Assembly (NCBI GenBank): GCA_049521055.1
Contig: JBEKPE010000004.1
Coordinates: 535 to 64,534, forward strand
Length of the DNA: 64,000 nucleotides
Origin: Candidatus Bathyarchaeia archaeon
Lineage (GTDB): Archaea; Thermoproteota; Bathyarchaeia; 40CM-2-53-6
Reading direction: 5' to 3'
The notes below the pieces were generated by a model. It worked only from the letters and a program-made list of their open reading frames with translations, made no database searches and had not been told where the DNA came from. Made by a program: the position numbers and the translations under genes. Position 1 is the first letter of the stretch, and each line of letters begins with the position of its first letter. Below are positions 3,100 to 57,857 of the stretch, one piece after another.

Positions 3100-3365
3100 T
3101 TTTCCTCTCTTCCCGCTAAGACACCGAGCCGAACTGGGTCGAGAAGTGGCCTTTGGGTGGTCAGGTGTTGGTCGGAGGGTTTCAGATGTTTCTGGGTGGC
3201 GAGTAATCTCAATACTTGAAGCATGCATGTTTTGCCTTGGCAGGGGCCTGTGGAGAAGCCGGCGTACCTTTTCAGGCTTTCAATGTCGTCGTAGCCCAGA
3301 TGTATGGCTTCCAGCACGTCCTCCTCGGTCAGATCTTCACAGAAACAGACGAACTTCTTTCCCAT
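3096..3365 (-). CDS. BFD-like [2Fe-2S]-binding small subunit
   Basis: [11 protein letters not shown]...GPCQGKTC matches the Cys pattern of BFD-like [2Fe-2S] domains. These domains occur in opine, proline and HCN dehydrogenase complexes. Confidence 0.5.
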
Positions 3366-3367
3366 CC

Positions 3368-3868
3368 TTACACACCCGCCTTAATCGCCCTAGCCTCGAG
3401 GAGCCATTCGGTTGGAACCTCAATCGTGACCAACGCTGTCCCGTCGTTGCGTTCGGGTGGAAGTACTCGTGCCACCTTACTCGTCCCGAGAACGGTCCCT
3501 TTTCTGTTCAGAGCCGTAACTTGATCTCCGGTTTTCGGAACGGGTAGAAACTCGTAGGGCAACGTAACGTAACCGACCCCGTCTCCTTCCCTCAGAAGAA
3601 AAGCGGCAAGGCCGGGGCATACCATCGCGCAGGCCATGCAACCTGTGCATTTGTCGTAATCGACTCTCGGAATATCGTTGATTCTGGCCATTTGAATGGC
3701 GCCAAGCTTGCATGCGACGACGCAGGAATTGCATGGAATCTCTTGAATACATTCAATCATTGCTACTGGCCGCTTCTCCCTCAGCCTTTCAGTGGGTGGG
3801 ACTAAGTTGAAAGACGCTAGATCCTCTAACCCAACGATGCCGTTGCTAAGATACTGCTTCTGCTCCAA
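3368..3868 (-). CDS. ferredoxin-like subunit (4Fe-4S motif, SoxA/HcnA N-terminal-like)
   Basis: The motifs CNSCVVAC and [12 protein letters not shown] are present. The gene sits in an operon with the FAD subunits. Confidence 0.45.
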
Positions 3869-5453
3869 TCTTCACACCCTCAGTTAGCATGATGCTCTCT
3901 AGCCCTCGGCGAATCTTCTCGCCGAATGGTCCCGACCGATCCTCATCCAGCCTCTTGGTCCAAGCCTCCAATTGTTCTTCGTCTCCCGGAAGCCCGAGTC
4001 CGGATTTGAGTGATGCGTGTACGCCGACGATTTGCCCTTCGAGCATGGCCGTGGTGGCTTCCTCTATCCCCGAAACGTCACCCGCCACGTAGACTCCATC
4101 AGCTACTTCCATGTACTTCGTCCTGCGGGCAACGAACCCTCCAAGTTCTGGAACGAGCTGTAGTTGTGCTCCTGCGTGGGAGGCAAGCTCGTAGGTGGGC
4201 GTGAGGCCAACTGCGATGCAGATGAGGTCACAATCGATCTTCCGTTCTGTTCCAGGAATTGGGTTGAATGACTTGTCAATCTCGGCTATGATGGCCCCCT
4301 GGACCCTATTCCGTCCTATCGCTTTCACGACTGTGTGCGACGTGAGAATCTCAACTCCTTGACGTCGGACTTTGGCTGCGTGAACTAGGTATCCGCCGAT
4401 TTTGGGTAGGGCCTCTACGATGGCAACAACGTTCACTCCCGCTTGGAGCAGTTGATAGGATAGGATGAGGCCAACGTTTCCCGCACCGACAACAAGCGCC
4501 TTCTCGCCTGGTTTGACGGAATAGGTATTCATCAGGGTTTGTACCCCGCCGGCTCCGTAAACTCCCGGCAAATCGTTGTTCTCGAATAGCAGTGTTCTCT
4601 CATATGCTCCGGTGGCTATGATGATCTTCTTGGCGTGAATCTTCAGTAGTCGATTTTCCTGCGCAGCCGCCACAACGTGACCGTTGTAGATGCCGAATAC
4701 GTCGCAGCCGAGGTAGGTTGTAATCTTCTTGTCTTCGCGGATCCTTTCTGTCAACTTCCCCGCTATTCGTATCCCCCTGACGCCTGCGTAGTGTCGTGCG
4801 TCGCCGAAGAATCGATGGGTCTGTTTGACAAGTTGTCCTCCCAACATTCTCTTGTCATCAATCAAGATGACTTTTCCACACCTCTTGGCCGCCTCAAGCG
4901 TAGCCGTTAGGCCGGCGGGGCCTCCTCCGATTACGACGACATCCGCCTCAACCGAAACCTTCGACCCCTCAGCTTTCCCGATTGACCCCTTGGATGGCAG
5001 GTGTCCCAATCCAACGAATCTCGTTAGGATTCTGAGGTAGGTTTCCCTCAGGAAGGAGGGATGAATCATCTTTCGGTGGTAGAACCCCGACGCTAACGAG
5101 AAGTAGAAACTCATCTTGTCCATTACTGATAGGAGGTCGTGGTCGGCGTTGGGGAAACCATTCTGGCGCGAAACGTTCACGCCTTCCTTCACGTTGACCA
5201 TGCATGTACGTACGTTCGGGACGCCGTCGACCGTCATCATGCACGCTGAACAACGTCCTATGGCGCAGAAGAACCCTCTAGGACGATGGTACTTCATGCT
5301 GCGACTAAAAATTCGCAACCCATTTGCGTAAAGTGCAGCCGCCACAGTCTCGTTCGCATACGCTTCGATCGGTCTACCTTCAAAATGGAAGGTAACCTTG
5401 TTTCCGCGATCGAACTTGAGCACGGGGTGTTGTGAAATCCTAGTATCCGTCAA
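3846..5453 (-). CDS. FAD/NAD(P)-binding oxidoreductase large (alpha-like) subunit of a heteromeric proline/opine-dehydrogenase-type complex
   Basis: There are two dinucleotide-binding motifs, VVVIGGGPAGLTA and VVGAGNVGL, and the N-terminus resembles the 2Fe-2S-binding region of SoxA. The neighbours are the FAD-beta, BFD and ferredoxin genes. Confidence 0.55.
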   Translation of the reverse strand: MTDTRISQHPVLKFDRGNKVTFHFEGRPIEAYANETVAAALYANGLRIFSRSMKYHRPRGFFCAIGRCSACMMTVDGVPNVRTCMVNVKEGVNVSRQNGFPNADHDLLSVMDKMSFYFSLASGFYHRKMIHPSFLRETYLRILTRFVGLGHLPSKGSIGKAEGSKVSVEADVVVIGGGPAGLTATLEAAKRCGKVILIDDKRMLGGQLVKQTHRFFGDARHYAGVRGIRIAGKLTERIREDKKITTYLGCDVFGIYNGHVVAAAQENRLLKIHAKKIIIATGAYERTLLFENNDLPGVYGAGGVQTLMNTYSVKPGEKALVVGAGNVGLILSYQLLQAGVNVVAIVEALPKIGGYLVHAAKVRRQGVEILTSHTVVKAIGRNRVQGAIIAEIDKSFNPIPGTERKIDCDLICIAVGLTPTYELASHAGAQLQLVPELGGFVARRTKYMEVADGVYVAGDVSGIEEATTAMLEGQIVGVHASLKSGLGLPGDEEQLEAWTKRLDEDRSGPFGEKIRRGLESIMLTEGVKIGAEAVS

Positions 5454-5477
5454 GATTGTCCCTTCTGCCCCCGATCA

Positions 5478-5909
5478 TCAATGGTCTACTTCCAGAAGGT
5501 ATTCTCGAACATCGAGGTCGTCGTATTCGACATCGATAGCTTGCCTTGGGCAGGCGCCGACGCACTGCCAGCAAAGGAAGCATTCGGGTACGTGGTACCT
5601 AATCGCGAGGTTGACCGGCTTGGGGGACGATATGATGCGTTCATGGAAACTTTCGAGCGCGGGACTGTTCTTCACAAAATCGTCGACTGGCTTGCACCAT
5701 CGTCCGTTCGTGGAGTGTTCAAAGACTGAGCCGGGGCAACTACTGATGCATGCTCCGTCTCCATCGCATTTGCTATAGTCAACCACGAGATAGGGCAATT
5801 CCAACCGCGAAGATGAGATTGAGAGTTCTCTTAAGCATGCGGCATTTACAGCCCGTATTCTATAGAACCCACTAGGAGTTGAACCTCGCAGACAGGGACA
5901 GAGCATCAA
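5478..5909 (-). CDS. 4Fe-4S dicluster ferredoxin
   Basis: The motifs CDGDGACISSCP and CFLCWQCVGACP are present. The true start is probably internal. Confidence 0.5.
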   Translation of the reverse strand: MMLCPCLRGSTPSGFYRIRAVNAACLRELSISSSRLELPYLVVDYSKCDGDGACISSCPGSVFEHSTNGRWCKPVDDFVKNSPALESFHERIISSPKPVNLAIRYHVPECFLCWQCVGACPRQAIDVEYDDLDVREYLLEVDH

Positions 5910-6780: not shown

Positions 6781-7866
6781 ATGGCCGATGTCAGACTTGA
6801 GGGTTTGACAAAGGTTTTCGGTAGCGTTCGGGCCGTCGATAACGTTGATCTTTACATCAACGACAAAGAATTTCTGACCCTGCTTGGTCCTTCAGGTTGC
6901 GGGAAGACCACGACGATGCGCCTTGTGGCAGGGTTGGAGGACCCGACACAGGGTAAGGTCTACATTGGAGGCAAGTTAGTGAATGATCTTCCTCCCAAGC
7001 TGCGAGATGTTGCGATGGTCTTCCAGAACTATGCGCTTTATCCCCATATGACCGTCTATGACAACATCTCGTTTCCGCTGAGAATGCGTAAGTACCCGAA
7101 AGATAAGATCAAAGAGAAAGTTACAACCACAGCCCAGCTTCTTGAGATCCAAGAGCTTCTAGACCGCAAACCGCGACAGTTGAGCGGTGGCCAACAGCAA
7201 CGCGTTGCCTTAGGCAGAGCGATTGTCCGTGAACCTCAAGTCTTCCTTATGGACGAGCCGCTAAGCAACTTAGACGCTAAACTCAGAATCTACATGCGTG
7301 CTGAGCTAAAACGCCTTCAGAAACGAATTGGGATCACCACGATCTACGTGACACATGATCAGGTGGAGGCGATGACAATGTCCGATCGCATCGCGCTTAT
7401 GAATGCGGGCGCTATTCAACAATTGGCGACGTCGGATCAGATTTACAATCATCCCTCTAACCTTTTCGTGGCTGGATTCGTTGGAAACCCACCTATGAAC
7501 TTCCTACCCTGCGTCCTCCATGAGGAAGATGACAAAACCATATTGGAGGCGGGAGCCTTCAAACTTGACATCACCGACATAAAAGGGACTGATGAATTAG
7601 GCATGACCTCGTCTGAGTTAACATTAGGCATAAGACCTGAGGATATTTCCGTTTCACAACAACGGTCTACTAGCTCCGTGGAAGCCACAGTCTACGTTGT
7701 AGAACCACTTGGATCGGAGGTGCTCGTCAATCTCAAGCTAGGTAATGAGATCGTGAAGGCTAGGGCACCACCAAGCACGATGGTCAAAGTTGAAGACCAA
7801 GTCTATCTCACGTTCAACAAGGATAAGATGCATCTATTCGACAAAACTAAGAAATTGATAATCTGA
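6781..7866 (+). CDS. ABC transporter ATP-binding protein, MalK/UgpC type with a C-terminal TOBE domain
   Basis: Walker A is GPSGCGKTT, the signature is LSGGQQQRVALGRA and Walker B is VFLMDEPLSNLD. Confidence 0.8.
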   Translation: MADVRLEGLTKVFGSVRAVDNVDLYINDKEFLTLLGPSGCGKTTTMRLVAGLEDPTQGKVYIGGKLVNDLPPKLRDVAMVFQNYALYPHMTVYDNISFPLRMRKYPKDKIKEKVTTTAQLLEIQELLDRKPRQLSGGQQQRVALGRAIVREPQVFLMDEPLSNLDAKLRIYMRAELKRLQKRIGITTIYVTHDQVEAMTMSDRIALMNAGAIQQLATSDQIYNHPSNLFVAGFVGNPPMNFLPCVLHEEDDKTILEAGAFKLDITDIKGTDELGMTSSELTLGIRPEDISVSQQRSTSSVEATVYVVEPLGSEVLVNLKLGNEIVKARAPPSTMVKVEDQVYLTFNKDKMHLFDKTKKLII

Positions 7867-8084: not shown

Positions 8085-9083
8085 TTGCTTTGCCTGTCCC
8101 CCCTAAAGCAAGAGAATTTGTCAAATAGGATAAGATTTGGAGTTACTCTTCCAACATGGGATTATGACGTGCCTGATGGAAGTAACCGAGAAGGAGGGAG
8201 GCCCGTAAATTACGATGAAATACTCAATATCGCTTTCGTTTCCGAGAAACTGGGGTACTATTCCATACTTGTAGATGACCATCTGACTCGGGGAAAGGGT
8301 GGCTTCATATACGAAGGTTGGACGATACTCTCAGCGTTATCTGCAATTACCAGCAAAATCCGACTCGGAACGATTGTATTATGTAATTCATTCAGATATC
8401 CTTCGGTGTTGGCTAAGATGGCCTCCACTTTGGACGTTATCTCGAAAGGCAGACTAGAGTTAGCAATGGGGGCCGGATGGATGCAAGAGGAATACGTTCA
8501 GTACGGGATACCATTTCCTGTTGCTAGAGAAAGGATTGGTCGACTGAAGGAAGGTGTGGAGATCATAAGAAGACTTTGGACTGAGGATTCGTTAACTTAC
8601 AGAGGAAAATATTACACACTTGAAAATGCGATCTGTGAGCCAAAACCGGTACAGAAGCCTCACCCACCGATTTGGATAGGTGGAGGGGGAGAACATCTAA
8701 CACTCAGAGTGGTTGCGGAGTCAGCTGATGGATGCAACTTCGGGGGATCATTCGAGGAATACAAGCACAAGCTGGAAGTGCTGAAGAAACACTGTTCGAA
8801 AGCAGGCAAAGATTTTCGTGATTTAGAAAAATCATGGATTGGAAACTTGATAATTTCCTTGGATGAAAGTGATCTGAAGCAGAAAATGAATATAGTGAAG
8901 CCTCAAAACGTGTCCCCTGAAGATTACGCCAACTCAAACATTGTAGGAACTCCCGAGCAATGCATAGATCGAATCAAAGAATATTCAGACTTTGGCATAA
9001 CTTATTTTGTATTCAATGGTTTTTCCATGTTAGGTGTAGATGATCTAAAGTTGTTCGCCGAAGAAGTGATGCATAGTCTGTGA
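8085..9083 (+). CDS. luciferase-like monooxygenase (LLM) family, F420-dependent-type oxidoreductase
   Basis: It has LLM-family spacing of conserved Gly/Trp: LGTIVLCNSFRYP...PHPPIWIGGGG. Confidence 0.55.
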   Translation: MLCLSPLKQENLSNRIRFGVTLPTWDYDVPDGSNREGGRPVNYDEILNIAFVSEKLGYYSILVDDHLTRGKGGFIYEGWTILSALSAITSKIRLGTIVLCNSFRYPSVLAKMASTLDVISKGRLELAMGAGWMQEEYVQYGIPFPVARERIGRLKEGVEIIRRLWTEDSLTYRGKYYTLENAICEPKPVQKPHPPIWIGGGGEHLTLRVVAESADGCNFGGSFEEYKHKLEVLKKHCSKAGKDFRDLEKSWIGNLIISLDESDLKQKMNIVKPQNVSPEDYANSNIVGTPEQCIDRIKEYSDFGITYFVFNGFSMLGVDDLKLFAEEVMHSL

Positions 9084-9123
9084 AAACCCTTGATGACAAT
9101 TGCTGGAGCGAAGTTCGATCAAA

Positions 9124-10101
9124 CTATGCAGCAAGCGGTAGAGGTAGCGTGTAGCTTGGATTCTTTCCTATCCAGTCAACAAATTCCTTAACTCCCTTAT
9201 CCAGGCTGTACCGCGGCCTATAGCCCAGTTCCTCTTGCGCCCTCGTTAGGTCCAGCGTGTTTCTAGGCAGAAACCTTTCCATGGGGGCCCAGATTCCGGG
9301 ATGCACCTTTATTTGCGAACCTGGTATTGTCTTCATAACTGTATCCGCAAGTTCAGACAATGAGTATGATCTGCCACCGCTAATATTGAAAATGTAATGT
9401 TTTATGGGCCTAACTGAATAGGCTAAGAATATACCCTCAGCAATGTCTCGTACATAGGTAAGGTCCAGAGTATTATTGGCTCCAATCATCTCATAGGGCT
9501 CGCGAGCGAGAGCCTTCGATATGAAGAACGGAATAGGCGGAATCGCTACTTGCTGATTCGGTCCGTAGATACATGAACCGCGTATAACTACAGCATCCAA
9601 ATTATGCGCATCATGGTATTTAGTTGTCAACAACTCAAGCATATACTTGTGCACGGCGTAAGTAACAGATGAACCTGAACCCCATGACGAAAATGATTCA
9701 TCCTCTTTTATCGGCTTAAGGTCCGGAGAAAATTTCGCACCGTAGACTGAAGCAGAACTCATGGAAACAACTTTTAGATTTTTTAACCTAGCTGCTTCTA
9801 GAACGGTCGCCGTCCCGTCAACGTCCACCTTAAAGCTCCAATCTGGGAACTGATTCAGATCCTTCAACCAGGCGGCCGTGTGGATTATGCCCTCGACATT
9901 GAACTTTTCTATAAGGTCCAATATCCGGGATAGATCTCTAATGTCTCCAAATTCGAGCCTCACTTTACTAGAGACTTCATTCAGGAAATCAACTTTACGG
10001 GGCGCGATGTCGTAACAAATAACACTGTAACCTTCGTCAACAAACTTTCTTGCTGTACTAGCCCCTACTTCGCCGGTTCCACCTGTCACTAGGACAGACA
10101 T
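9124..10101 (-). CDS. NAD-dependent epimerase/dehydratase (extended SDR)
   Basis: The N-terminus is MSVLVTGGTGEVG, and a YxxxK-type catalytic region is present. Confidence 0.6.
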   Translation of the reverse strand: MSVLVTGGTGEVGASTARKFVDEGYSVICYDIAPRKVDFLNEVSSKVRLEFGDIRDLSRILDLIEKFNVEGIIHTAAWLKDLNQFPDWSFKVDVDGTATVLEAARLKNLKVVSMSSASVYGAKFSPDLKPIKEDESFSSWGSGSSVTYAVHKYMLELLTTKYHDAHNLDAVVIRGSCIYGPNQQVAIPPIPFFISKALAREPYEMIGANNTLDLTYVRDIAEGIFLAYSVRPIKHYIFNISGGRSYSLSELADTVMKTIPGSQIKVHPGIWAPMERFLPRNTLDLTRAQEELGYRPRYSLDKGVKEFVDWIGKNPSYTLPLPLAA

Positions 10102-10134
10102 ATGATCCTCACCACCAATTACCCTACCTATTTG

Positions 10135-11841
10135 TTATTCAAGGAGGCTTGAATACGCTTTTATTTCTTCTCCCTCTTGCCTGATTATAATGCTCTTCAT
10201 TTGGTCTTGGTCATCCCTGCTAGGATAATCATCGCGATAATGACTCCCTCTACTTTCCCGTCTGAGCAAAGCTGCAGTGGTCAAGATTTGCCCCACATCC
10301 AGCATGTTCCGGATCTCTAGTGCATGAACCAGTTCTCCCTCATTTTGTATACAAAGATCAAGTAAATGATGCTTCATGATACGTTCCAATTCCATCTTAC
10401 ATTCATTCAGGCCTCTTTCGTTTCGGACGACCAAAACATTTCTCCACATGACTTCCTGTATCGCTTTTTCTGTTTTTGTGACGTCTATTCCTGCTTTAGC
10501 TTCTCTAATTCTTGCAAGCCGTTCGTATTCTTCGCTACCATCTGCGGTTATCTGATCATTGATGGTCAGTGCTCTCTTTGCAGCAAATTCTCCAGCTCTT
10601 GCCCCAAACACCTGGCAATTTGCTAACATGTTTCCTCCAAGCCTATCAGCTCCATGCATCCCTCCCGTGACTTCGCCTGCCGCGTACAGACCCGGCAACG
10701 TAGTTTCAGCTTTCTCGTTAATCCTAATTCCGCCGTTGAAAGCATGAGCAAAGAGGGCCACCTCGAGCAAATCGGTCATCGGATCAATACCGCGCGTGCG
10801 GAGCCATTCCAGCCACAACTGATGGCGCTCGCGCATTTTAGATTCAGCGATGTTTCTGAGATCCACGTATACGCCTCCATTTCTTGTACCTCGGCCTTCC
10901 TTTATTTCATTAAACATCGCTATGTCAATGTACTTCGATTCGTCACTGGTACTGAACGGCCAATGCAAGGCCCTCAAGCTAAGACACCTATTCAGGTTTA
11001 CATCACGGGGCATATACTTCTCGAGAAAGCTTTCACCATCTACATTATACACACGTGGACGTAATGGCCAAACCTGATTTGTGAATAAAAGTGGGCGAGT
11101 TTCATCGGAGCGAACTATGCCCATTCCTATTTGAAGAAACTCCATGTTTACCAACTCCACACCTGCTCTAAAGGCGATTGCATAACCATCCCCTGTTATG
11201 CTTGGAGGATCAAAATTCAATCGATACAACATTCCAGCCCCACCAGTTGCCAATATAGTCGACTTCGCAATGAAGACGATGAAGTCGCCTTTTTTGCTGA
11301 TTCCCGTCGCCCCAGCACAAGCATTATTTTGAGTCAGAAGGTTCGTTATCATCACATTTTCCATGACTTCGATGTCTCTTCGTTCAATTTCCTTCTTGAG
11401 CACGCTAAGAATAGAGTTTCCGTGATTCTTGGTCTCGCACATCCTAGGACGAGAACTGAAGCATCCCAATCGTTGAGCATATTTACCGTCCGACTTCTCG
11501 AACCTTGCACCCCATTTTTCCAGATCAAGGAGTCTTCTAGGGGCTTCATAGGCTACAATCCTAGCAAGCCTTTTGTCACACATTCCCAATCCCGCTTGCA
11601 CAATGTCGGAGAAGTGCACAGCAGGATTGTCCATTGGGTCCGCATGTCCAAAAGCTGCCTGATATCCCCCAGCGTGAGAAACCGCAAAACTGGTTGCGCT
11701 GCTTTCGCTCCCACCAAAATGTCCTTTGGTGACCATTAACACATGAGCACCTCGTTCGTCTGCCTCTATGGCAGCCCTAGCCCCGGCTCCACCGCCTCCA
11801 ATCACTAAGACATCTGCTTTGATGACGCTTCCACTACTCAT
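10135..11841 (-). CDS. FAD-binding flavoprotein of the succinate dehydrogenase / fumarate reductase / L-aspartate oxidase family
   Basis: VLVIGGGGAGARAA is the FAD-binding site, and RRESRGSHYRDDYP matches the RxxxSRGxHxRxDYP family motif. Confidence 0.7.
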   Translation of the reverse strand: MSSGSVIKADVLVIGGGGAGARAAIEADERGAHVLMVTKGHFGGSESSATSFAVSHAGGYQAAFGHADPMDNPAVHFSDIVQAGLGMCDKRLARIVAYEAPRRLLDLEKWGARFEKSDGKYAQRLGCFSSRPRMCETKNHGNSILSVLKKEIERRDIEVMENVMITNLLTQNNACAGATGISKKGDFIVFIAKSTILATGGAGMLYRLNFDPPSITGDGYAIAFRAGVELVNMEFLQIGMGIVRSDETRPLLFTNQVWPLRPRVYNVDGESFLEKYMPRDVNLNRCLSLRALHWPFSTSDESKYIDIAMFNEIKEGRGTRNGGVYVDLRNIAESKMRERHQLWLEWLRTRGIDPMTDLLEVALFAHAFNGGIRINEKAETTLPGLYAAGEVTGGMHGADRLGGNMLANCQVFGARAGEFAAKRALTINDQITADGSEEYERLARIREAKAGIDVTKTEKAIQEVMWRNVLVVRNERGLNECKMELERIMKHHLLDLCIQNEGELVHALEIRNMLDVGQILTTAALLRRESRGSHYRDDYPSRDDQDQMKSIIIRQEGEEIKAYSSLLE

Positions 11842-11874
11842 TTGCGTGCCCCACAGAGAAGGCTTGAATGAGGA

Positions 11875-12789
11875 CTAGTTTACAAGCGCTAGATGTTTCA
11901 GAGTTCTCCTTACTTGCGCCCTACGAATATCATCAATTCCGATTAGCGGGTTCCTTACTGTGCTAGTTGAAATCACTCCCAACATAACCAGAGCCTCTTT
12001 GCAACATGGAATGTAATTTGGCTCGCAAAGCGCGACGTTGATGAAAGGCAATATCTTATAGAAGACATCCCATGCTTCATCGATCCGCCCTTGCATGAAT
12101 TTTTCGTATAAATCCACAAAATGACCCGGCAGAACCGCCGGTGCTGCCACCGTAAAACCCGCGGCTCCTCTCTCCAAGAACTGCATTGCAAGAACTTCCT
12201 CTCCACAGAAGATCGTTAACTTGTCACCGGCGAGCTTCCGCACATCAGCGACCTTTAGAGGATCTGAAAGACTTATTTTGAGGTATTCCACGTATTTTTC
12301 TTTGAACAATCTCGCTATAGTGGAGGCCTCCAGGGTTACTCCGGTAGCAGTCGGGTTATCGTATAGAATAATCGGTATCTTTACTGACTGCGCAATTTTG
12401 CCAAAGAAACCCAATAATTCTTCCTCTCCCACTCGACTAAATCCACCTTTGAAATAATACGGAGCGCTGATCAACAAGGCAGCTGCTCCCGCTTTCTCTG
12501 CATGAGTAGCAATATCAATCGCCACCTTTGGACTCGTATGACTTGCGCATCCGATCACTGGAACTTTTCCCTTAACACGGTCAATTACAATCTCGAGTCC
12601 TCTTTTTCGCTCTTCGGTACTAAGCGACGGAGACTCACTCGAGCTTCCGCCATACAAGACCCCATGTACACGATTTGTTAGCAGGAAATCCGTATGTTTT
12701 TCCAGGCTTTGCACATCGACTTCTTCAGTGGCGTTGAACGGCGTCAACATAATCGGTATGACGCCGTGAAGTTTTCCTGTTTTGTTCAT
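11875..12789 (-). CDS. DapA/KDG-aldolase family lyase (dihydrodipicolinate synthase-like)
   Basis: The TIM-barrel N-terminus IPIMLTPF and a Schiff-base Lys context, YVEYLKIS, are present. The length is right for this family. Confidence 0.65.
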   Translation of the reverse strand: MNKTGKLHGVIPIMLTPFNATEEVDVQSLEKHTDFLLTNRVHGVLYGGSSSESPSLSTEERKRGLEIVIDRVKGKVPVIGCASHTSPKVAIDIATHAEKAGAAALLISAPYYFKGGFSRVGEEELLGFFGKIAQSVKIPIILYDNPTATGVTLEASTIARLFKEKYVEYLKISLSDPLKVADVRKLAGDKLTIFCGEEVLAMQFLERGAAGFTVAAPAVLPGHFVDLYEKFMQGRIDEAWDVFYKILPFINVALCEPNYIPCCKEALVMLGVISTSTVRNPLIGIDDIRRAQVRRTLKHLALVN

Positions 12790-12845
12790 GTTAACGCCAG
12801 CCCTAACTAATTGGCGAATCTGTTAGTTAACGCGAGTCTTTTTGA

Positions 12846-14204
12846 TCAGGTTTGCGTTGTGGTGGTGGAGGTCGATTCTCCTTCAATTAGTGCTGCGGCG
12901 AATTGGTTAGCCATTTGTTGTGCTGTAATCTGCCCTGCCAGCGCCTCATCAAAGAGGGTTACTCCAGTTGTGCCTGCAATTCCTCCCCATGACGGGTACG
13001 GACTAATGTTGTACGGAACTAGCCCAAGGAATGATGAGGAATAAGCGAACGCGGCCATGTGGAGATCGGCAGAAAACACTGGAAGAGCGGCAACACTCTC
13101 GCGCGGTGGAACCTGAACGATCTTTTGGTTCCATAGACTCATAGCCCAATCCGACGCCATGAATTGAATGAGCTTCCATGCTGCATCCTGGTGCGTACTG
13201 CCGCTCATAAGGCCAAGGAGGTATTCGCCCATGTACGAGACTCTCTTCCCTGTTGGCCCTATGGGAATAGGTGCCGTGCCCCATGTAGGATTAGTCGCGG
13301 TCCCATTACCCGGATTATAGCCATTCTGATCTTGTACCCCGGCGCAATTGTGAATGTACATCGACGTTACCCCTCTGCCAAAGTCTGCGCTCATCTGTGC
13401 CCAACCGTCGCTTGGGGCACTTGGTGGACATACTTTGTACTTAGTGCACAAGTCAACGTACCATTGTAATCCTTGGACTGCTTGCGTGCTGTTGACTACG
13501 ACTTGACCACTCGAATTTACAACATCGCCCCCGAAAGCATACATAAAGGTCGTAGCATACTCGACGGAACCCGCGCCAGAGCCTCTCATTCCGAAACCAT
13601 ATTGTTGCGTCCCGTTCACTACGCGGGTTAAAGCCAACGCGTCCCGTAGGAAGTCATCAGTTGTCCAGTTACCATTTGGCAGCGGAAGTCCAAGCTCCTT
13701 GAATCGATCAATTCTATAGTAAACGCCATCGTTATACATCGTAAATGGGACACCCACTATCTTTCCATCCCTAGTAGCCGGTTCGAGAGCGATATGATTG
13801 AAATCATTGAAAACTGTTATTCGCTGCGTTAAGTCCGATAAGGCACCCATGCCGTAAAGCGTTCCAACTAAGTAATCAGGCATAAAGAATACGTCTGGAA
13901 CAGTACCGGACGTAACAGCTTGTATTATCTTCGTACTTTCGAGGGTCTGAGGATAGGACACTAGGTTTACTTGGATGCCTGGGTTCTGCGCGGTAAAATT
14001 GTTGAATATCTCTTGAAACGTGTTAACCCTTAGCTGATCATAGAGGGTCCAGAAAGTTAGCGTAACAAGCGGTTGTGAAGTACTCTCTGTGACACTAGTT
14101 GTCGGTCCTGATTGTGAAGTGTTCTGTTGGACATACCATGCAACAGCACCCACCATCAGAGCAACGATCACGACTGCGGCGATTATCTTGACTTTATTAT
14201 CCAT
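12846..14204 (-). CDS. ABC transporter substrate-binding protein, family 1 (CUT1 sugar-type), membrane-anchored
   Basis: There is an N-terminal TM/signal anchor. The body has SBP-1-like composition and the gene is in an operon with two MalFG-type permeases. Confidence 0.6.
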   Translation of the reverse strand: MDNKVKIIAAVVIVALMVGAVAWYVQQNTSQSGPTTSVTESTSQPLVTLTFWTLYDQLRVNTFQEIFNNFTAQNPGIQVNLVSYPQTLESTKIIQAVTSGTVPDVFFMPDYLVGTLYGMGALSDLTQRITVFNDFNHIALEPATRDGKIVGVPFTMYNDGVYYRIDRFKELGLPLPNGNWTTDDFLRDALALTRVVNGTQQYGFGMRGSGAGSVEYATTFMYAFGGDVVNSSGQVVVNSTQAVQGLQWYVDLCTKYKVCPPSAPSDGWAQMSADFGRGVTSMYIHNCAGVQDQNGYNPGNGTATNPTWGTAPIPIGPTGKRVSYMGEYLLGLMSGSTHQDAAWKLIQFMASDWAMSLWNQKIVQVPPRESVAALPVFSADLHMAAFAYSSSFLGLVPYNISPYPSWGGIAGTTGVTLFDEALAGQITAQQMANQFAAALIEGESTSTTTTQT

Positions 14205-14429
14205 TAAAAATCGAGCCGTAACCGACTCAAACGTATTTAAACGTGGTTCGTGGATTCACCCTTTGAAAAAGTCCGATGGATACGGCTGAGAAGAGACCTG
14301 GGTAATACCATTGAAGACCAGATGAAATAACTGCTTAATCCACTCCCATCGTTTGCTAATACTGTATTTACGGTGTCGGTAACGGGTCTCAATTTCAACG
14401 ATTTTCATCCTTGGAAGAGTACAGCCATT

Positions 14430-14885
14430 CTAACCTGCAGTTTTCCTAATCTTGGTGACAATTTTGATAATTCCCAGATTTCCATCTACGTAGACGTGAT
14501 CGCCAGTCATTGTTTCCTTAAAGATTTCCGCATCTACGTTATCGACTAGCGGGATCTGCACATTGTAGAATTTCTTAGCGAGAACGGGCCCGGCCACAAG
14601 TACGGGATCAGAGTTCATAGCAACAATTGCAGCGGGGCCTCGTTTGTTTCTCACTGCTTCGAGAAAGATCCCTGATCCTCCAGTAGATCCTCTGAAGTTG
14701 CGAATAATGAGGACTTTGTTGGTTATGTTCATGCCTTTGATTTTTTGTCTTGCATCCTGCACATCTCCTGATATAGGGTCAATGTCACCCACTAATCCCA
14801 AAGCCTGGTCAAACACTAATGCTTCGCCCTCGGCGATACCGCCAATCAATGCTCTTCCCCTAAAGGTCTTGTAAGGCACGCTCAC
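14430..14885 (-). CDS. aconitase X (AcnX) small subunit, DUF126
   Basis: It is about 150 aa and sits immediately downstream of the AcnX large subunit. The Gly-rich GSTGGSG stretch is what this family carries. Confidence 0.55.
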   Translation of the reverse strand: MSVPYKTFRGRALIGGIAEGEALVFDQALGLVGDIDPISGDVQDARQKIKGMNITNKVLIIRNFRGSTGGSGIFLEAVRNKRGPAAIVAMNSDPVLVAGPVLAKKFYNVQIPLVDNVDAEIFKETMTGDHVYVDGNLGIIKIVTKIRKTAG

Positions 14886-14892
14886 AGACCTC

Positions 14893-16128
14893 TTATTCCA
14901 CTCTCCCAGTTATTGCCGCTTTGATGCATTCGCTTGTACTCGCATAAATGACGTTCGTCTTGCATGACATCGGCGAATAATGCGCCATCTTTGCAGAGTT
15001 AGTTACCATGGTTTTGAATCCGCATAGGTACGTAGGAATAGTTAAGCAGCAACTATCAGTCATTATCTTCACACCTGACTCTCTCAGTATGCTGGCATAG
15101 CCCATCTTCTCTGCCAGGGCGTTCACGATCCTATTCGTGCTAACCCAAAATTTCACGCCGTCGTGAACTTTCTCGCCCTTCAATAAAGCAGCCAGTTCAC
15201 CTATTTCACTTATTGTGCTGTGAGGGCAACCTATGTTAACGAAATCTATATCGCATCCTCCTATGATGGTTGAGAGTTTCTCCTTTGTATCTTTCAAATC
15301 CTCTGGCCCCAACTCCAACTTGTCCTCAGGCTCTTCTTCGCCGAAAGCTTCCTGTAAGGTTCTGGCTTCCGGCGTCACTCCGACAACATGGTATAATGCT
15401 GCCGCACCAGAAGAGGCCATTGCAGCGCCGAACGACACCAACTGGCTATTCTTTACACTCTTAGGAATTCCTTGGATGACTGGTATTCCCTTGATTACGT
15501 CTTCTCCGATTCTGTATCCTAACAGCGGATAATCTTCATCAGACAATTGCTTGAACCCTTTAACATTGACCAGCACATTGCCACGTCTATTTTCAGCTAG
15601 ATGAAGGCCAAATTCTGGAACTAGTCCAACGATTGCAGCGCACAAGTCCACATAACTGGCGTATCTATTTGTTCTAGCGCCTATTACTGAGTTCGCATAT
15701 ATTACACAGTTTGACTCGGCCCAAGCAATTTGTTGACCAAACCTTGGAACATTAATGTGATAATAGGGGGTGCAGGTCCATATGGGAATGGCCCCGATCT
15801 TTTCCAACGCTCTCGCCAATCTCAACTGTTTATCTGCCCAACTGTCAGGCACACCAAACTCAGTCCAGTGGTCGAGTGGACTCGCTCCTGTGACTATACT
15901 CGTTGGAATTCTTACGCTCGCGCCCTCTTCTGCAAGTTTTTCACAAATTTCGACTCCTGCATCGTACGTCAAACGATAAGATCCGCATACAATATTGGCA
16001 CTTTCAACCTTAATCATCTTATTCGCATTATAAGCTACTCCAAGATCAACCAGGATCTCCATCGCAAGCCTAGTTGCTTCTCCATACTTCCCCTTTAACA
16101 TCATTTCTTCTTCGTTATTTAGATACAA
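14893..16128 (-). CDS. aconitase X (AcnX) large/catalytic subunit, DUF521: phosphomevalonate dehydratase or cis-3-hydroxy-L-proline dehydratase type
   Basis: The N-terminus MYLNNEEEMMLKGKYGEATRLAMEILVDLG fits the AcnX family's Fe-S dehydratase fold. The substrate cannot be assigned from sequence. Confidence 0.6.
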   Translation of the reverse strand: MYLNNEEEMMLKGKYGEATRLAMEILVDLGVAYNANKMIKVESANIVCGSYRLTYDAGVEICEKLAEEGASVRIPTSIVTGASPLDHWTEFGVPDSWADKQLRLARALEKIGAIPIWTCTPYYHINVPRFGQQIAWAESNCVIYANSVIGARTNRYASYVDLCAAIVGLVPEFGLHLAENRRGNVLVNVKGFKQLSDEDYPLLGYRIGEDVIKGIPVIQGIPKSVKNSQLVSFGAAMASSGAAALYHVVGVTPEARTLQEAFGEEEPEDKLELGPEDLKDTKEKLSTIIGGCDIDFVNIGCPHSTISEIGELAALLKGEKVHDGVKFWVSTNRIVNALAEKMGYASILRESGVKIMTDSCCLTIPTYLCGFKTMVTNSAKMAHYSPMSCKTNVIYASTSECIKAAITGRVE

Positions 16129-16528
16129 AGGATCACTACGAAGAGCAATAATGGTTTCGCGTGAACATCTCTCGACCCATTAATAACTTCTTGTCTGCAC
16201 TTAGCAATCAAAAGATCACGTCCTTAACTTCTTGACGAAGAAAACGAGAGGGCTAACGGTTCAGTAGTTGCTACTCCGCGACACCTTGCCTCAATATTAT
16301 CAGGCGAAAGGGTGGGATCCAGTCAGAAGCATACCGACAAAGGAAAAACTGAGGGAGTTAGGACTGGCTGACATAGCGGAAGAGTTCTCGTCTTAACCAC
16401 CATATTGCTCACCACGTATTGCCCACATCGCTTCTCAAGGTGCAGTTCAATGTCAAAACCATGCGATCCAAGATTGAACTCAATCATGGAGTAATAACTA
16501 GGTAACTCTTACCACATCTGGATTATGC

Positions 16529-17380
16529 CTAATGTTTCACGGCTCCTGTGACTAAACCCGAAATTAGATATTTTTGGAAGAAGGCAAAAAATACTAGGAC
16601 AGGGATAAGGGAAATCATTGTTGCAGCCGTCAGGATATCCCAACGTACCCCAGTTTGCCCAAACATGTAAAGCAATCCTGCCGGTAAAGTCGTCCTGGCT
16701 TTGCTGTTGATGAATGAGACGGCAAAGAGCAATTCGCCCCAACTAGATACGAAAGCATATGCAGCACTAGCAGCTATTCCAGGAGCGGCGAGAGGTAACA
16801 CGATCCTGATTAACGCGTCAAATCTCCCGCAACCATCCACCATCGCACTCTCTTCTATTTCGTATGGAATTGTTTGGAAATATCCCATTAACATCCACAC
16901 CGTAAACGGGACGGTAAAAGTAAGATATGATAATATCAAGACTTGATAAGTGTTAAGCAATCCAAGATAACTCCACTGACTTAAGAGGGGAGTAATCAAC
17001 AATGCGGAGGGAAACATCTGCGTGGTTAGAAGCAAAAGCGCTACAATGCCGCTCCCCGCGAACTTGCCTCTCGCAAGGCTATAGCCGGCGAACATAGAAA
17101 CAAGAATTGTGATGAGAGTAGTTGATAGAGAAACTATAACGCTGTTCATAAGAAATGTGCCAAATGGTGCCGATGGCTCACTCCATGCCTGTACATAATT
17201 GATTAGAGTGGGCTTAATCGGAAGATAAGACGATATAGGATACTCGTAGATTTCAGTATTTGGTTTCAGTGATGTCAAAAATGTCCATATCAAAGGAAAA
17301 GCAAAGAATGCCAGCAGCAATACTAACGTAGGAAGAAGAAGTGCCCATTTGATCGTATTTTCATTGAGGCGTCGTCGCAC
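16529..17380 (-). CDS. ABC transporter permease (MalG-like, CUT1)
   Basis: The EAA loop reads EESAMVDGCGRFDALIRIVLP, and there are six TM segments. Confidence 0.7.
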   Translation of the reverse strand: MRRRLNENTIKWALLLPTLVLLLAFFAFPLIWTFLTSLKPNTEIYEYPISSYLPIKPTLINYVQAWSEPSAPFGTFLMNSVIVSLSTTLITILVSMFAGYSLARGKFAGSGIVALLLLTTQMFPSALLITPLLSQWSYLGLLNTYQVLILSYLTFTVPFTVWMLMGYFQTIPYEIEESAMVDGCGRFDALIRIVLPLAAPGIAASAAYAFVSSWGELLFAVSFINSKARTTLPAGLLYMFGQTGVRWDILTAATMISLIPVLVFFAFFQKYLISGLVTGAVKH

Positions 17381-17384
17381 GAGT

Positions 17385-18272
17385 TCACTCGCCCCCAGGT
17401 TTTACTCCCTTAAGCATTTTGTAGTACACTATGGTGAACCCTAATACTAGGATAAGTGTGAAAACTGACAGGGTGGCTGCATATCCGAAGTTAAAGAGTT
17501 CATAAGCCGTGATCAGTACGTAAGAAGCAAGTATCTGAGTAGAGTTCGCTGGTCCACCGTTTGTCATAATAAATATTAGATCTGGATAATTAAACGTCCA
17601 AATTATACGGATTACAGTTGAAATGATTATTGTGGGCTTAAGCGTAGGAATAGTGATGTGGATGAACCTTCCCCACATAGACGCACCATCCACGCGAGCA
17701 GCTTCATACAATACGTTAGGGATAGCCTGAAGTCCAGCCAACAAGATTATGATAAAGAACGGGGCACCCCTCCATAAATTAGCAAGAATAATTGACAACA
17801 GCGCTGTTGATGTATCACTTAACCACGGAATGGCGTGATGTATCAGTCCCGTTTTCATGAGCAAATCATCTATCAAGCCGAAATTTGGATCGAGAAGCCA
17901 ACCCCATATTATTCCGACAACAGCACCGGGTATCGCCCACGGGAGGATCACTACAGATCTAACAAGTCCTCTCCCTCTGAACTTCTCGTTCAGGACTAAA
18001 GCCCCTATAAATCCCAAGATGAATTGAGAAAATACGGATAGAACCACCCAGATAAGCGTATTCTGCAACGCAACCCAAAAAACCGGATCTGTGAATAACT
18101 GCTGATAATTAGCTAAACCTATGTAATGTACCTCATTGGGTAGATACAATATGTTTTGTTGAAAACTCATATTAATGGCTCTCAAAATCGGTACATAAAC
18201 AGTCGACGCTAAGCAAAGCACGGCAGGCAGTAGATAGAGATAATCGGATATATCCTTCGTTTTATGGGGCAT
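17385..18272 (-). CDS. ABC transporter permease (MalF-like, CUT1)
   Basis: The EAA loop reads YEAARVDGASMWGRFIHITIP, and there are multiple TM helices. Confidence 0.7.
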   Translation of the reverse strand: MPHKTKDISDYLYLLPAVLCLASTVYVPILRAINMSFQQNILYLPNEVHYIGLANYQQLFTDPVFWVALQNTLIWVVLSVFSQFILGFIGALVLNEKFRGRGLVRSVVILPWAIPGAVVGIIWGWLLDPNFGLIDDLLMKTGLIHHAIPWLSDTSTALLSIILANLWRGAPFFIIILLAGLQAIPNVLYEAARVDGASMWGRFIHITIPTLKPTIIISTVIRIIWTFNYPDLIFIMTNGGPANSTQILASYVLITAYELFNFGYAATLSVFTLILVLGFTIVYYKMLKGVKPGGE

Positions 18273-18839
18273 GAATGATCACAAGTTCGAGATATCCCCC
18301 ATTATTACACATAAAATATTTTCTTTAATCAGCCGAGACGCGCCCTACTTCGAACAGAGTCGCTTGCAATACGGCAGACGAAACAGCAACGGCACTTAGC
18401 AATCTTCGAAAACGAAACTGGTGGAGTTTGAGCGCTCTCCCGCCCGAGGTCGCAGGCACAGATCTCGATCATTATGCCTTTGAAGTATGAGGAATTGTCC
18501 GAGAACAACAAGCTGGCACCTCCAGTCAAAGATATTCTAATCTTTGGACCTACAGTATGCGGTAAAAGATGCGCGCGCAATCGCAAAATCCATTAGCGTT
18601 TCCTTCATACACCGGTCTGGAACAGATCGACACACGAAGCTTTCGGTGAAAGCGCGGCACATGCACGTGAGATGTTTCTTGAAGCAGAGAAAAACACTTG
18701 GACACACTAGATACTATAGATGAGAAGTTCAGGTAGTTGGATGTCTTGTTCCAAGGAGCGGTGGGGGACCGCCGCATCAGAGGCCGGAAGCTTTGAAGAT
18801 GTAGTAGTTCAGTATGAATAAACGTAAGAAGCACATTCT

Positions 18840-19874
18840 TTGCGGATAGGTCGTGACTTTATGAACTATGTTAGACTTGGAGACAGCGGACTAAGAGTTT
18901 CTGAGATTTGTCTTGGCACTTGGCATCTTCCGAGGTTGACGGAAACTGATCAGTATGGGATACCGAAAGTGGACGCTGAAGAAACGAGAAGGGTAGTGAA
19001 TCTGGCTTTTGATCATGGCATAAACTTCATTGATACTGCGAACCGATACCATGGAGCGATGGCTCCAGTTGATTTGAATCATTATGGAAACGCTGAGAAG
19101 GTCCTATCAGACATACTCAGAGACCACGAAAGAGAGAGCTTTGTGTTGGCCACGAAGGTGGGGGCCGAAATGGCACCCTGGCCGAATGGACGAGGTCTGT
19201 CAAGGAAACACCTGTTCTGGCAAATAACCGAAAGTTTGAAGCGATTAAAACTGGAATACGTGGACGTATATTTGGCTCATATTCCAGATGAGGAAACGCC
19301 GCATCTGGAAACTTTGCAAGCTCTCAATGACCTAGTCGCAATGGGGAAAGTTCACTACATCGGTTGTTCCAACTTCACGACAGAACAGGTCATTGACTTC
19401 ATGGAGCTTTCCAAAGTGCATGACTTAGTCAGCTTTGTTACACTCCAAGACGCATATAGCCTAGTCAACCGCAGCATTGAATCCAACAAGCTACTTCTAG
19501 CTCACAGGTACAACTTCACAATTATGGCGTATTCTACACTAGCTCAAGGATTACTGTCCGGCAGATATCTAGACGGAGTTCCAGTTGGATCAAGAGCAAC
19601 GTATTCCCAGAGCCTCAAGAAAGCATTATCTGAGAAGAACTTGGACTCCTTAAGAAAATCATCCACCTTAGCCAGCGAGAAGGGTATCTCGCTATCCCAA
19701 CTCGCTATTGCATGGTTGCTTCACAAGCAGAGAAAACTTGGCGTCAGCATAATTCCGATCATCGGAGTATCAAACAGAGAACAACTACTAGAAAATCTTC
19801 AAGCATTAGAAGTTCACCTATCCGAAGGTGACATGTCAAAAGCGGAACAGATTGTGCTCTCAATCCAAGTCTAG
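18840..19874 (+). CDS. aldo/keto reductase
   Basis: The N-terminus YVRLGDSGLRVSEICLGTW is AKR-family, as is the overall length. Confidence 0.7.
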   Translation: MRIGRDFMNYVRLGDSGLRVSEICLGTWHLPRLTETDQYGIPKVDAEETRRVVNLAFDHGINFIDTANRYHGAMAPVDLNHYGNAEKVLSDILRDHERESFVLATKVGAEMAPWPNGRGLSRKHLFWQITESLKRLKLEYVDVYLAHIPDEETPHLETLQALNDLVAMGKVHYIGCSNFTTEQVIDFMELSKVHDLVSFVTLQDAYSLVNRSIESNKLLLAHRYNFTIMAYSTLAQGLLSGRYLDGVPVGSRATYSQSLKKALSEKNLDSLRKSSTLASEKGISLSQLAIAWLLHKQRKLGVSIIPIIGVSNREQLLENLQALEVHLSEGDMSKAEQIVLSIQV

Positions 19875-22091: not shown

Positions 22092-22253
22092 GTGGCGGGC
22101 CCGCCGGGATTTGAACCCGGGACCCCTCCCCAAGCTAGCTTCTAAGCCAAGCTTTTCGGGTGGCTTCCCATGGGTTCGAAACGCCCAGAGGTAAAAGCCT
22201 CACCAACGCCCACACAGCGTCACCGATGCTCTACCTGACTGAGCTACGGGCCC
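22092..22253 (-). tRNA. tRNA gene with intron(s), 162 nt, encoded CCA, identity not assigned
   Basis: On the minus strand: 5' GGGCCCG-TA-GCTCAGTCAGGTAGAGC...CCGGGTTCAAATCCCGG-CGGGCCC-G-CCA 3'. The acceptor stem is perfectly paired and the D and T arms are canonical, with about 85 nt of extra internal sequence. Confidence 0.75.
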
Positions 22254-23788: not shown

Positions 23789-23861
23789 TCCTTTGGGCGG
23801 GATTCGAACCCGCGTCGACGACGTGACAGGCCGTCATCCTAGACCACTGAACGACCAGGGC
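23789..23861 (-). tRNA. tRNA-Asp(GUC)-like gene with a non-complementary acceptor stem (possible pseudo-tRNA)
   Basis: On the minus strand: GCCCTGG-TC-GTTCAGTGGTCTAGGAT-G-ACGGC-CTGTCAC-GTCGT-CGAC-GCGGGTTCGAATCCCGC-CCAAAGG-A. The T arm is canonical. The anticodon stem ACGGC/GTCGT pairs, and the loop CUGUCAC gives anticodon GUC with U33 and A37. The acceptor 5' GCCCTGG against 3' CCAAAGG has three mismatches. Confidence 0.45.
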
Positions 23862-26141: not shown

Positions 26142-26239
26142 TAGGCTGACATGGATGCGCCTTGGGCGCACACCTACAGCGTCTCCGTCACTCCTATGAA
26201 GAGGGACTCGGAAGCTCTACCAAGCTGAGCTACCGCGGG
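26086..26239 (-). tRNA. tRNA gene with intron(s), 154 nt, encoded CCA
   Basis: On the minus strand: CCCGCGG-TA-GCTCAGCTTGGTAGAGC...GCTGGTTCAAATCCGGC-CCGCGGG-A-CCA. The acceptor stem is perfectly paired, with about 78 nt of extra internal sequence. Confidence 0.7.
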
Positions 26240-29791: not shown

Positions 29792-29894
29792 GGCGGAGAT
29801 CCAACCCGTTCCAAGGGTGATGTTGACGAGTATGATGTGGACTATGATAGCTACCCCGAGGATCGCGAAGCCCAGTATCTCGGCGCTCGCCAGC

Positions 29895-57851: not shown

Positions 57852-57857
57852 GCCGTA

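Follow-up and report, generated by a model that had tools for sequence, protein, structure and literature searches.

An archaeal AcnX paired with a divergent SdhA-like flavoprotein points to a third, undescribed AcnX activity in a Bathyarchaeia gene island

What does an AcnX hydro-lyase do when it is encoded among catabolic genes? We take up this question for a stretch of 64,000 nucleotides from a Candidatus Bathyarchaeia archaeon (GenBank assembly GCA_049521055.1, contig JBEKPE010000004.1, positions 535 to 64,534 of the forward strand), here called the window, in which both subunits of an AcnX enzyme are encoded on the minus strand together with a carbohydrate-type importer, a DapA-like lyase and an SdhA/FrdA/NadB-like flavoprotein. 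To our knowledge, only two AcnX activities are known. The first is that of phosphomevalonate dehydratase (PMDh), as which AcnX is near-universal in archaea (PMC11052028) and which releases a stable 2-enoate (PMC8184944); the second is that of Type I AcnX, a proven cis-3-hydroxy-L-proline (C3LHyp) dehydratase located in hydroxyproline clusters. Further subclasses, IIc to IIf, have no known function, lack the landmark residues of either activity and are placed in bacteria by Fig. 1d of the same structural study (PMC8184944). Our literature searches (aconitase X, AcnX, DUF521, DUF126) returned neither a third AcnX function nor a description of the present gene combination, which a preliminary description of this locus had likewise not matched to any described pathway. 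Here we ask what the residues, partners and neighborhood of this AcnX suggest about its role.

The large subunit (14893-16128, minus strand; 411 aa, TTG start) matches PF04412 over its full length (E=1.4e-141, residues 1-403/411), and the separate swivel subunit (14430-14885, minus strand; 151 aa) matches PF01989 (E=2.3e-20). Taking landmark residues from the crystal structures of Watanabe et al. (2021; PMC8184944) and aligning to 7cnr and 7cnp, we find the catalytic core retained: Glu138, Ser139, Lys380 and Tyr384 of the large subunit, which contact the carboxylate and the 3-hydroxyl, align with the residues of the Thermococcus kodakarensis (Tk) and AtAcnX enzymes, and Ser67 of the small subunit aligns with the base Ser62 of Tk and Ser70 of At. 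The best-scoring solved relative is the large subunit of the Tk enzyme (7cnr_A; 254 bits, 39% identity, compared with 33% to AtAcnX), a PMDh of Type IIb (TK1248/1249, PDB 7cnr/7cns), the type also found in Aeropyrum pernix. Like it, the window AcnX has two separate subunits, a Ser base on the small one, equivalents of Tk Glu129, Ser130, Lys361 and Tyr365, and a non-polar site for the C2 substituent (Val47 and Gly69, against Ala47 and Val64 in Tk); furthermore, its Cys119, Cys301 and Cys360 occupy the positions of the Tk ligands Cys110, Cys283 and Cys342, so that the cluster is probably [4Fe-4S]. However, the phosphate-binding pair Asn53/Asn79 is replaced by Leu53/Val79 (Pro53/Val79 in an orthologue from Candidatus Hodarchaeota), the PMDh signature Q45-x-G48-V49-S50 ... 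N79 gives way to N45-V47-C48-G49-S50 ... V79, an insertion of about nine residues around Trp88 is absent from Tk, and the gene context is catabolic and not isoprenoid.

The C3LHyp dehydratase fits no better. AtAcnX has the same fold, the same catalytic Ser, Glu, Lys and Tyr, the Trp88 insertion and Asn140, and its genes too may sit near those of DHDPS-family and DAO/SoxA-type dehydrogenase proteins. Nonetheless, all four of its substrate-binding landmarks are replaced, Trp35 and Thr72 by Val32 and Gly69 of the small subunit and Asp203 and Ile206 by Val47 and Ser50 of the large one; its subunits are fused, whereas those of the window are separate; and the Type-I [2Fe-2S] ligand set (Cys273, Cys508, Cys510, Ser at 449) is not matched, since Cys301 stands at the 449 equivalent, as in a [4Fe-4S]-type set, and Leu at the 510 equivalent. 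Because the core is kept while the landmarks of both known specificities are replaced, the alignments point to a [4Fe-4S]-type hydro-lyase with a third, undescribed substrate specificity. This bears out the suggestion of the preliminary description that the substrate may be neither hydroxyproline nor phosphomevalonate.

Wider sampling places the enzyme in sparsely populated territory. When the 120 best database matches are placed in a tree, the window AcnX falls in a small clade (P0001, 2, 3, 7, 9, 17 and 19), apart from the PMDh-type sequences and from those with Asp at position 47. Its closest non-self relative in a homologue search of 5.8 billion proteins is 56% identical; the Hodarchaeota large subunit (73% identity) is missing from that search, and further close orthologues may lie outside the indexed collection. 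A degenerate pattern for the motif ESANIVCGSY had zero matches in a metagenome scan, and an alignment-based scan, which ran on uninformative N-terminal patterns, confirmed no orthologue; the window and one Hodarchaeota metagenome-assembled genome (MAG) are thus the only known sources of the clade with N45. Clustered at 50% identity, the AcnX family comprises 2,684 clusters at E<=0.001 and 675 at E<=1e-30. Among the 148 nearest full-length representatives, 13 are PMDh-like, 24 C3LHyp-like and 111 neither, such that only 37 of the 148 bear the landmarks of a known activity, in a family less well understood than any other branch of the aconitase superfamily. By description, the window AcnX resembles Types IIc to IIf, which also lack the landmarks of either activity; those are bacterial in Fig. 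1d of PMC8184944, whereas the present clade consists of archaeal sequences (Bathyarchaeia, Hodarchaeota and metagenomic relatives). New with respect to that study is a landmark-free AcnX in archaea, together with a conserved partner and a pathway context, neither of which is described there.

That partner is the flavoprotein (10135-11841, minus strand; FAD_binding_2 E=8.4e-58, Succ_DH_flav_C E=8.6e-24). Aligned to E. coli FrdA and mycobacterial SdhA, it has Gly239 for FrdA His232, Trp258 for Arg287 and Phe for the His that carries covalent FAD, while His355 and Arg390 are retained as His366 and Arg400. The substitutions recur in a subfamily of 64 aligned archaeal and bacterial relatives, of which 60 have Gly at the His232 position and every one has Trp, Leu or Phe at that of Arg287, while Arg390 is kept in 64/64 and His355 in 55/64. 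The protein passes no NCBIfam equivalog cut-off (the best model, TfrA, scores 430 against a required 718 bits), and the island encodes no Fe-S subunit of the SdhB, FrdB or TfrB kind. A true fumarate reductase, succinate dehydrogenase (SDH) or NadB was rejected on the missing His232 and Arg287 and on the absence of encoded partner subunits. Judged by these positions, the flavoprotein belongs to a coherent subfamily distinct from fumarate reductase, whose members annotation sources routinely label 'fumarate reductase (CoM/CoB) subunit A' (TfrA) or succinate dehydrogenase flavoprotein (SdhA). The subfamily is thus mislabeled, annotated as acting on fumarate or succinate though without the residues that fumarate requires.

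AcnX adjoins a member of this subfamily in five contexts: the window, the Hodarchaeota contig (L093), L097 (the same as L006), L009-11, and L096. Relative to the window, the AcnX large subunit and the flavoprotein are 73% and 71% identical in L093, 56% and 57% in L097, and 51% and 45% in L009-11; only L096 combines a very different AcnX (30%) with a flavoprotein at 49%. Because the two identities fall in parallel across the first four contexts, the comparison suggests that AcnX and flavoprotein have been co-inherited. Other genes recur around the flavoprotein: an alcohol dehydrogenase (ADH) gene abuts it in the window, L093, L009 and L095; an aldehyde:ferredoxin oxidoreductase (AFOR) is found nearby in L093 and L095 (43% identical to each other) and as a relic in the window; and a CoA-transferase, with or without a MaoC hydratase, occurs in L093, L096 and L094. 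More broadly, the subfamily is spread widely across both bacteria and archaea; its other neighbors in L094 to L096 include ferredoxin, a Zn-dependent ADH and one TRAP transporter with a LacI regulator. By comparison, the DapA-like gene accompanies AcnX in the two closest clusters only; the preliminary description had listed both genes in the operon but had given the flavoprotein too little weight.

We propose that AcnX and the flavoprotein act successively on the same imported or derived acid, passing through a hydroxy-acid, an enoate and a saturated acid; to this general scheme we give about an even chance, and to its details less. AcnX would bind a carboxylate bearing a C3 hydroxyl, with Ser67 of the small subunit abstracting the C2 proton and the hydroxyl departing on the Fe-S cluster, in the manner of both characterized AcnX enzymes. 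The flavoprotein, in this scheme its obligate partner, keeps the FAD site and one carboxylate-binding His/Arg pair, having lost the residues for the second carboxylate of fumarate as well as the catalytic Arg. Together, the two would interconvert a 3-hydroxy-acid, a 2-enoate and a saturated acid of a skeleton other than a C4-dicarboxylate, much as malate, fumarate and succinate are interconverted. Before or after the pair, an NAD(P)-dependent alcohol dehydrogenase (an extended short-chain dehydrogenase here, a Zn-dependent ADH in sister loci) would act. In an upper branch, the CUT1 importer, an F420-type LLM oxidoreductase and the DapA-like lyase may convert an imported carbohydrate-type compound to pyruvate and an aldehyde or acid, the aldehyde being handled by an aldo-keto reductase (AKR) in the window and by AFOR in the orthologous cluster. 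We infer the enoate intermediate because PMDh releases a 2-enoate and enzymes of the fumarate reductase (FRD) family reduce enoates; the order of the steps, which way the flux runs and what kind of substrate is used are proposed likewise, upon the observed gene content, active-site residues, synteny, repeated pairing and compositional island. Among 6-deoxy-hexonates, uronates or aldarates, glucosaminate, 3-hydroxypropionate/acrylate and citramalate/mesaconate, present evidence gives no preference.

Such a division of labor has precedents. Flavoproteins of the FRD family have diversified to other enoates such as acrylate, methacrylate and urocanate, and fumarase with fumarate reductase or SDH, like aconitase with the tricarballylate dehydrogenase TcuA, is a known pairing in which an Fe-S hydro-lyase and a FAD_binding_2 flavoprotein work on the same acid by way of an enoate. 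The arrangement proposed for the window is alike in kind. It differs in that the flavoprotein lacks FrdA His232, Arg287 and the covalent-FAD His and comes with neither Fe-S nor membrane subunits, and in that the hydro-lyase is AcnX and its substrate probably not a C4-dicarboxylate.

Several observations weigh against the successive action of AcnX and flavoprotein. The island encodes no electron-transfer partner for the flavoprotein. L002-4 and L012, of the sister clade, have AcnX without a flavoprotein within 10 kb, and L094 and L095 have the flavoprotein without AcnX. A conserved ADH orthologue beside the flavoprotein found no support, the ADHs in question being only 24-37% identical to one another. 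Without the usual proton-donor Arg, the flavoprotein may carry out other chemistry, for instance 2-hydroxy-acid or amine oxidation, as in NadB. In addition, the enoate model leaves the DapA-like lyase without a necessary role, and the operon is interrupted, so that its genes may not be co-transcribed.

With these points in the balance, we advance tentatively, as possible rather than probable, the broader reading that the AcnX pair and a flavoprotein without His232 and Arg287 form an unrecognized, CoA-independent module linking hydroxy-acid, enoate and saturated acid, which would serve to oxidize a carbohydrate-derived acid or to dispose of electrons in anaerobic archaea (Bathyarchaeia, Asgard) and some bacteria. 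If true, the module would do with free acids what beta-oxidation or the step from fumarase to fumarate reductase does, and would bring a third function for AcnX and a new substrate class for SdhA-like flavoproteins. The island offers a good entry to such a third activity, combining an intact two-subunit enzyme, a partner flavoprotein, a solute-binding protein (SBP) suited to ligand fishing and a second copy in another phylum. There is also a risk for annotation: archaeal genome surveys that count any AcnX as evidence of the modified mevalonate pathway can be misled by paralogues of this kind, for which the landmark residues provide a simple filter.

What, then, surrounds the pair? The genes of the window were established from a listing of open reading frames (ORFs) and from Pfam and NCBIfam scans, and the eight minus-strand ORFs reported in the preliminary description were all recovered with the domains it had assigned. 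In the direction of transcription these are ABC permease 1, MalF/GlcT-like (17385-18272; PF00528, BPD_transp_1, E=6.1e-19; top NCBIfam models archaeal GlcT, MalF and UgpA); permease 2, MalG/GlcU-like, 4 nt further on (16529-17380; PF00528 E=2.8e-16; GlcU, MalG and UgpE); the two AcnX subunits; a family-1 SBP that has a membrane anchor at its N-terminus and a C-terminus rich in Thr (12846-14204; PF01547 E=9.6e-35, PF13416); the DHDPS-family lyase (11875-12789; PF00701 E=1.1e-53); the flavoprotein; and the extended short-chain dehydrogenase/epimerase-family protein (SDR; 9124-10101; PF01370 E=8e-34), which reaches no NCBIfam equivalog. The span of 10135-18272 first given for the operon covers seven of these eight, with the SDR gene falling just outside, and three plus-strand genes had been overlooked: a MalK-type ABC ATPase (6781-7866; domains ABC_tran, OB_MalK, TOBE_2 and TOBE), the LLM oxidoreductase (8085-9083), which is convergent with the SDR gene and exceeds the curated TIGR03560 subfamily cut-off (237.6 against 231.4 bits), and the AKR (18840-19874; PF00248 E=2.5e-66), divergent from permease 1. 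All island ORFs are intact and retain their catalytic residues.

The importer is of the CUT1 carbohydrate type, as had been proposed, on the evidence of its family-1 SBP, its pair of MalF/MalG-type permeases and an ATPase of the MalK type that has TOBE/OB domains. The relatives of the SBP in the PDB are all sugar or polyol binders (MalE3, CbpB, a sorbitol-binding protein and GacH), all with weak scores of <=79 bits. The ATPase is the probable energizer of the importer; its GC content at third codon positions (GC3), 0.55, is nearer that of native genes than that of the island.

Whether the eight genes form one operon, as the preliminary description had it, is a separate matter. Most junctions are indeed tight (4, 7, 56, 33 and 33 nt), but the gap between permease 2 and the AcnX large subunit measures 400 nt and that ahead of the SBP 225 nt. 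Within the former lies, on the opposite strand, a 38-residue AFOR relic (16274-16387, plus strand; tblastn with the Hodarchaeota AFOR, residues 586-623/626, 47% identity, E=6e-6). Reading the latter by eye, we find a T5 run (14266-14270) followed by a TATA-like box, TTTAAATA (14234-14241, minus strand), 29 nt upstream of the ATG of the SBP, which suggests that the SBP, DapA-like, flavoprotein and SDR genes are driven by a promoter of their own. Because of these two gaps and the promoter-like elements, three transcription units appear more likely than one.

The preliminary description had proposed looking to other archaea for conservation of the neighborhood, and there it is found. The Hodarchaeota contig carries orthologues of seven window proteins: besides AcnX-L and the flavoprotein, AcnX-S (67% identity), the DapA-like protein (75%), SDR (79%), LLM (71%) and SBP (45%). 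The order is rearranged, with the block of DapA-like, flavoprotein and SDR genes facing the LLM gene preserved, and the contig has in addition a DgaE-family PLP ammonia-lyase (315 bits), a D-glutamate-cyclase-like protein, a family-III CoA-transferase and an intact AFOR directly following AcnX-S. This recurrence in another archaeal MAG, with proteins 45-79% identical, supports the set as a real functional unit. Neighbors of the sister-clade AcnX genes comprise IolG-like Gfo/Idh/MocA, Zn-ADH, MR_MLE, AP_endonuc_2, 2-Hacid_dh, GD_AH, GH2 and RGL11 proteins; together with the CUT1 importer and the DgaE-family lyase, these lend the neighborhoods a carbohydrate flavor, which we count as support.

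Within the set, the DapA-like protein is itself reassigned. It scores 195.3 bits against TIGR00674 (dapA), below the cut-off of 206.15, and, aligned to the E. coli sequence, keeps the equivalents of Lys161 and Tyr133 but has Ala for Arg138. In the E. coli DHDPS numbering, we take Lys161 to form the Schiff base, Tyr133 to be catalytic and Arg138 to bind aspartate semialdehyde. A true DapA (4-hydroxy-tetrahydrodipicolinate synthase) was rejected on the Ala and the sub-threshold score; by its sequence the protein is classed as a DHDPS-family Schiff-base lyase within the wider PF00701 family.

A lyase of this kind is at home in the explanation that best survives beside ours, which we nonetheless consider rather unlikely: non-phosphorylative sugar oxidation of the Entner-Doudoroff, Dahms or LRA type, with AcnX standing in for the usual aldonate dehydratase. 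An imported aldose would be oxidized to the aldonate by the SDR or the LLM, AcnX would turn a 2,3-dihydroxy acid into a 2-keto-3-deoxy acid, the DapA-like lyase would yield pyruvate and an aldehyde, AKR or AFOR would take the aldehyde, and the flavoprotein would be peripheral, oxidizing for example the resulting 2-hydroxy-acid. There is a parallel with the archaeal KD(P)G aldolase branch, the L-rhamnose LRA1-4 route and the L-fucose route of Sulfolobus, which bring together a dehydrogenase of the SDR type, a dehydratase and a DHDPS-family lyase with uptake of a sugar at one end and aldehyde handling at the other. In support of it, the importer is of CUT1 type, no conventional sugar-acid dehydratase (enolase-superfamily, IlvD/EDD or GD_AH) is encoded in the island or the whole 64-kb window, the lyase has the Schiff-base Lys and no DHDPS Arg138, the AKR gene and the AFOR relic are adjacent, and the sister clade is located among sugar and uronate genes. 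Furthermore, L093 holds an intact AFOR and a lyase of the DgaE family, which converts 2-amino sugar acids to 2-keto-3-deoxy sugar acids, and a glycerate 2-kinase (47701-49104, plus strand; DUF4147 and MOFRL, 273 bits to a Thermoproteota model) would suit a non-phosphorylative branch, though it lies 28 kb from the island.

Sugar oxidation, however, leaves unexplained why AcnX has the flavoprotein rather than the DapA-like gene as its conserved partner. The dehydratases of the established routes belong to the enolase superfamily or to IlvD/EDD and not to AcnX, and these routes need neither an FRD-like flavoprotein nor an F420-type LLM; moreover, no lactonase is encoded in the window. In L002 the AcnX stands beside conventional MR_MLE and GD_AH dehydratases, so a simple replacement does not hold there. 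Finally, the AcnX residues turned toward the far end of the substrate are hydrophobic (Leu53, Val79, Val47 and Val32 of the small subunit), where a polyol would perhaps be better suited by polar ones, an argument from residue character to which we attach little weight.

A hydroxyproline-type route is improbable. Here AcnX would act on a 3-hydroxy cyclic amino acid, the DapA-like lyase would be an analogue of Pyr4H2C deaminase, a proline-dehydrogenase-like complex would oxidize a D- or L-imino acid, and the LLM would reduce pyrroline-2-carboxylate. A candidate complex is encoded 4 kb away by a minus-strand set (2139-5909; GC3 0.60) that resembles the archaeal four-subunit proline/sarcosine-type dehydrogenase: a ferredoxin (5478-5909), a SoxA/PH1363-like alpha subunit with Fer2_4 and Pyr_redox_2 domains (3846-5453), a 166-aa ferredoxin-like protein (3368-3868), an 89-aa SO_alpha_A3/BFD-like protein (3096-3365) and a SoxB/DAO beta subunit split by a frameshift (2626-3228 and 2139-2720), which is either a pseudogene or an assembly error. 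Beyond the precedent of Type I AcnX in hydroxyproline clusters, two bacterial loci, L014 and L031, have AcnX beside homologues of the complex (45-49% identity), the second with DHDPS-family genes as well. Yet the AcnX of both is of the Asp47/Asn79 type, unlike that of the window, from which all four C3LHyp-binding landmarks are absent, and the transporter is of carbohydrate type. Since the complex has the GC3 of native genes, unlike the island, is frameshifted, and does not appear in the visible part of the Hodarchaeota contig, we largely reject the hydroxyproline reading.

The island itself stands out by composition. Genes at 8085-19874 have a GC3 of 0.43-0.49 (0.47 for the AKR gene), against 0.54-0.63 for flanking and housekeeping genes, because of which the AcnX gene block (8.1-19.9 kb) is probably a horizontally acquired island. 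The Hodarchaeota contig has an overall GC of 43%. It could also be that the phylum label of either MAG reflects mis-binning. The AFOR relic, set against the intact AFOR of the Hodarchaeota cluster, points to rearrangement and gene loss after transfer. Within a few kilobases on its right-hand side lie two tRNA genes (22096-22253 and 23789-23861), a possible sign of an integration region.

Might transfer and decay have left accidental neighbors that share no single pathway? The AFOR relic, the frameshifted DAO gene nearby, the two long intergenic gaps and the differing gene order of the two orthologous clusters would be in keeping with this, but we hold it very improbable, given that seven proteins have been kept together in two MAGs assigned to different phyla (six at 67-79% identity, the SBP at 45%), that the island ORFs are intact with their catalytic residues, and that the adjacency of AcnX and flavoprotein recurs in more distant contexts.

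A housekeeping PMDh lying by chance among catabolic genes is scarcely credible, for all the prevalence of AcnX as PMDh in archaea and the high score of the Tk enzyme: both phosphate-binding Asn are replaced, the Q45/G48-V49-S50 signature common to all sampled PMDh-type archaeal sequences is absent, the gene sits in a low-GC3 island with catabolic neighbors that is common to another phylum, and PMDh-type AcnX enzymes of other Bathyarchaeota (L074) and of Hodarchaeota (L089) are only 37-38% identical to that of the window. Indeed, among the 80 loci listed, the full signature (Q45, G48-V49-S50, N79) occurs in sequences 37-42% identical to the window AcnX, from Methanobrevibacter, Thermoplasmata, Thor-, Loki-, Hod- and Bathyarchaeota, and because it is found in Bathyarchaeota and Hodarchaeota genomes, the lineages concerned possess a distinct PMDh-type enzyme. 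The preliminary description, in arguing from the neighborhood against a mevalonate role, is thus supported. The 64-kb window contains no mevalonate-pathway gene and no second AcnX.

Elsewhere in the window, several features merit a brief mention. Two minus-strand tRNA genes (22096-22253, already mentioned, and 26089-26239), both missed by ARAGORN, align to the complete Rfam tRNA model across some 150 nt and, because of that span, are taken to contain introns; a tRNA-intron endonuclease gene is found at 35098-35664. Both features mark the source as archaeal. Two adjacent genes at 28748-31466 (minus strand) encode proteins like subunit I of cytochrome bd oxidase (523 aa, E=2e-54; 347 aa, a weak match), an oxygen-reducing enzyme that is unexpected in a lineage usually called anaerobic. 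A citrate synthase gene lies at 38069-39244 (minus strand). Three successive genes carrying pieces of glutamate synthase (GXGXG with GATase_6; Glu_synthase; Glu_synthase/FMN_dh) at 55326-60660 (minus strand) look like an archaeal split-type glutamate synthase or a related enzyme. Lastly, a 1,505-aa ORF at 42947-47464 (minus strand), whose sole domain match is a C-terminal CarboxypepD_reg, probably encodes a large surface protein.

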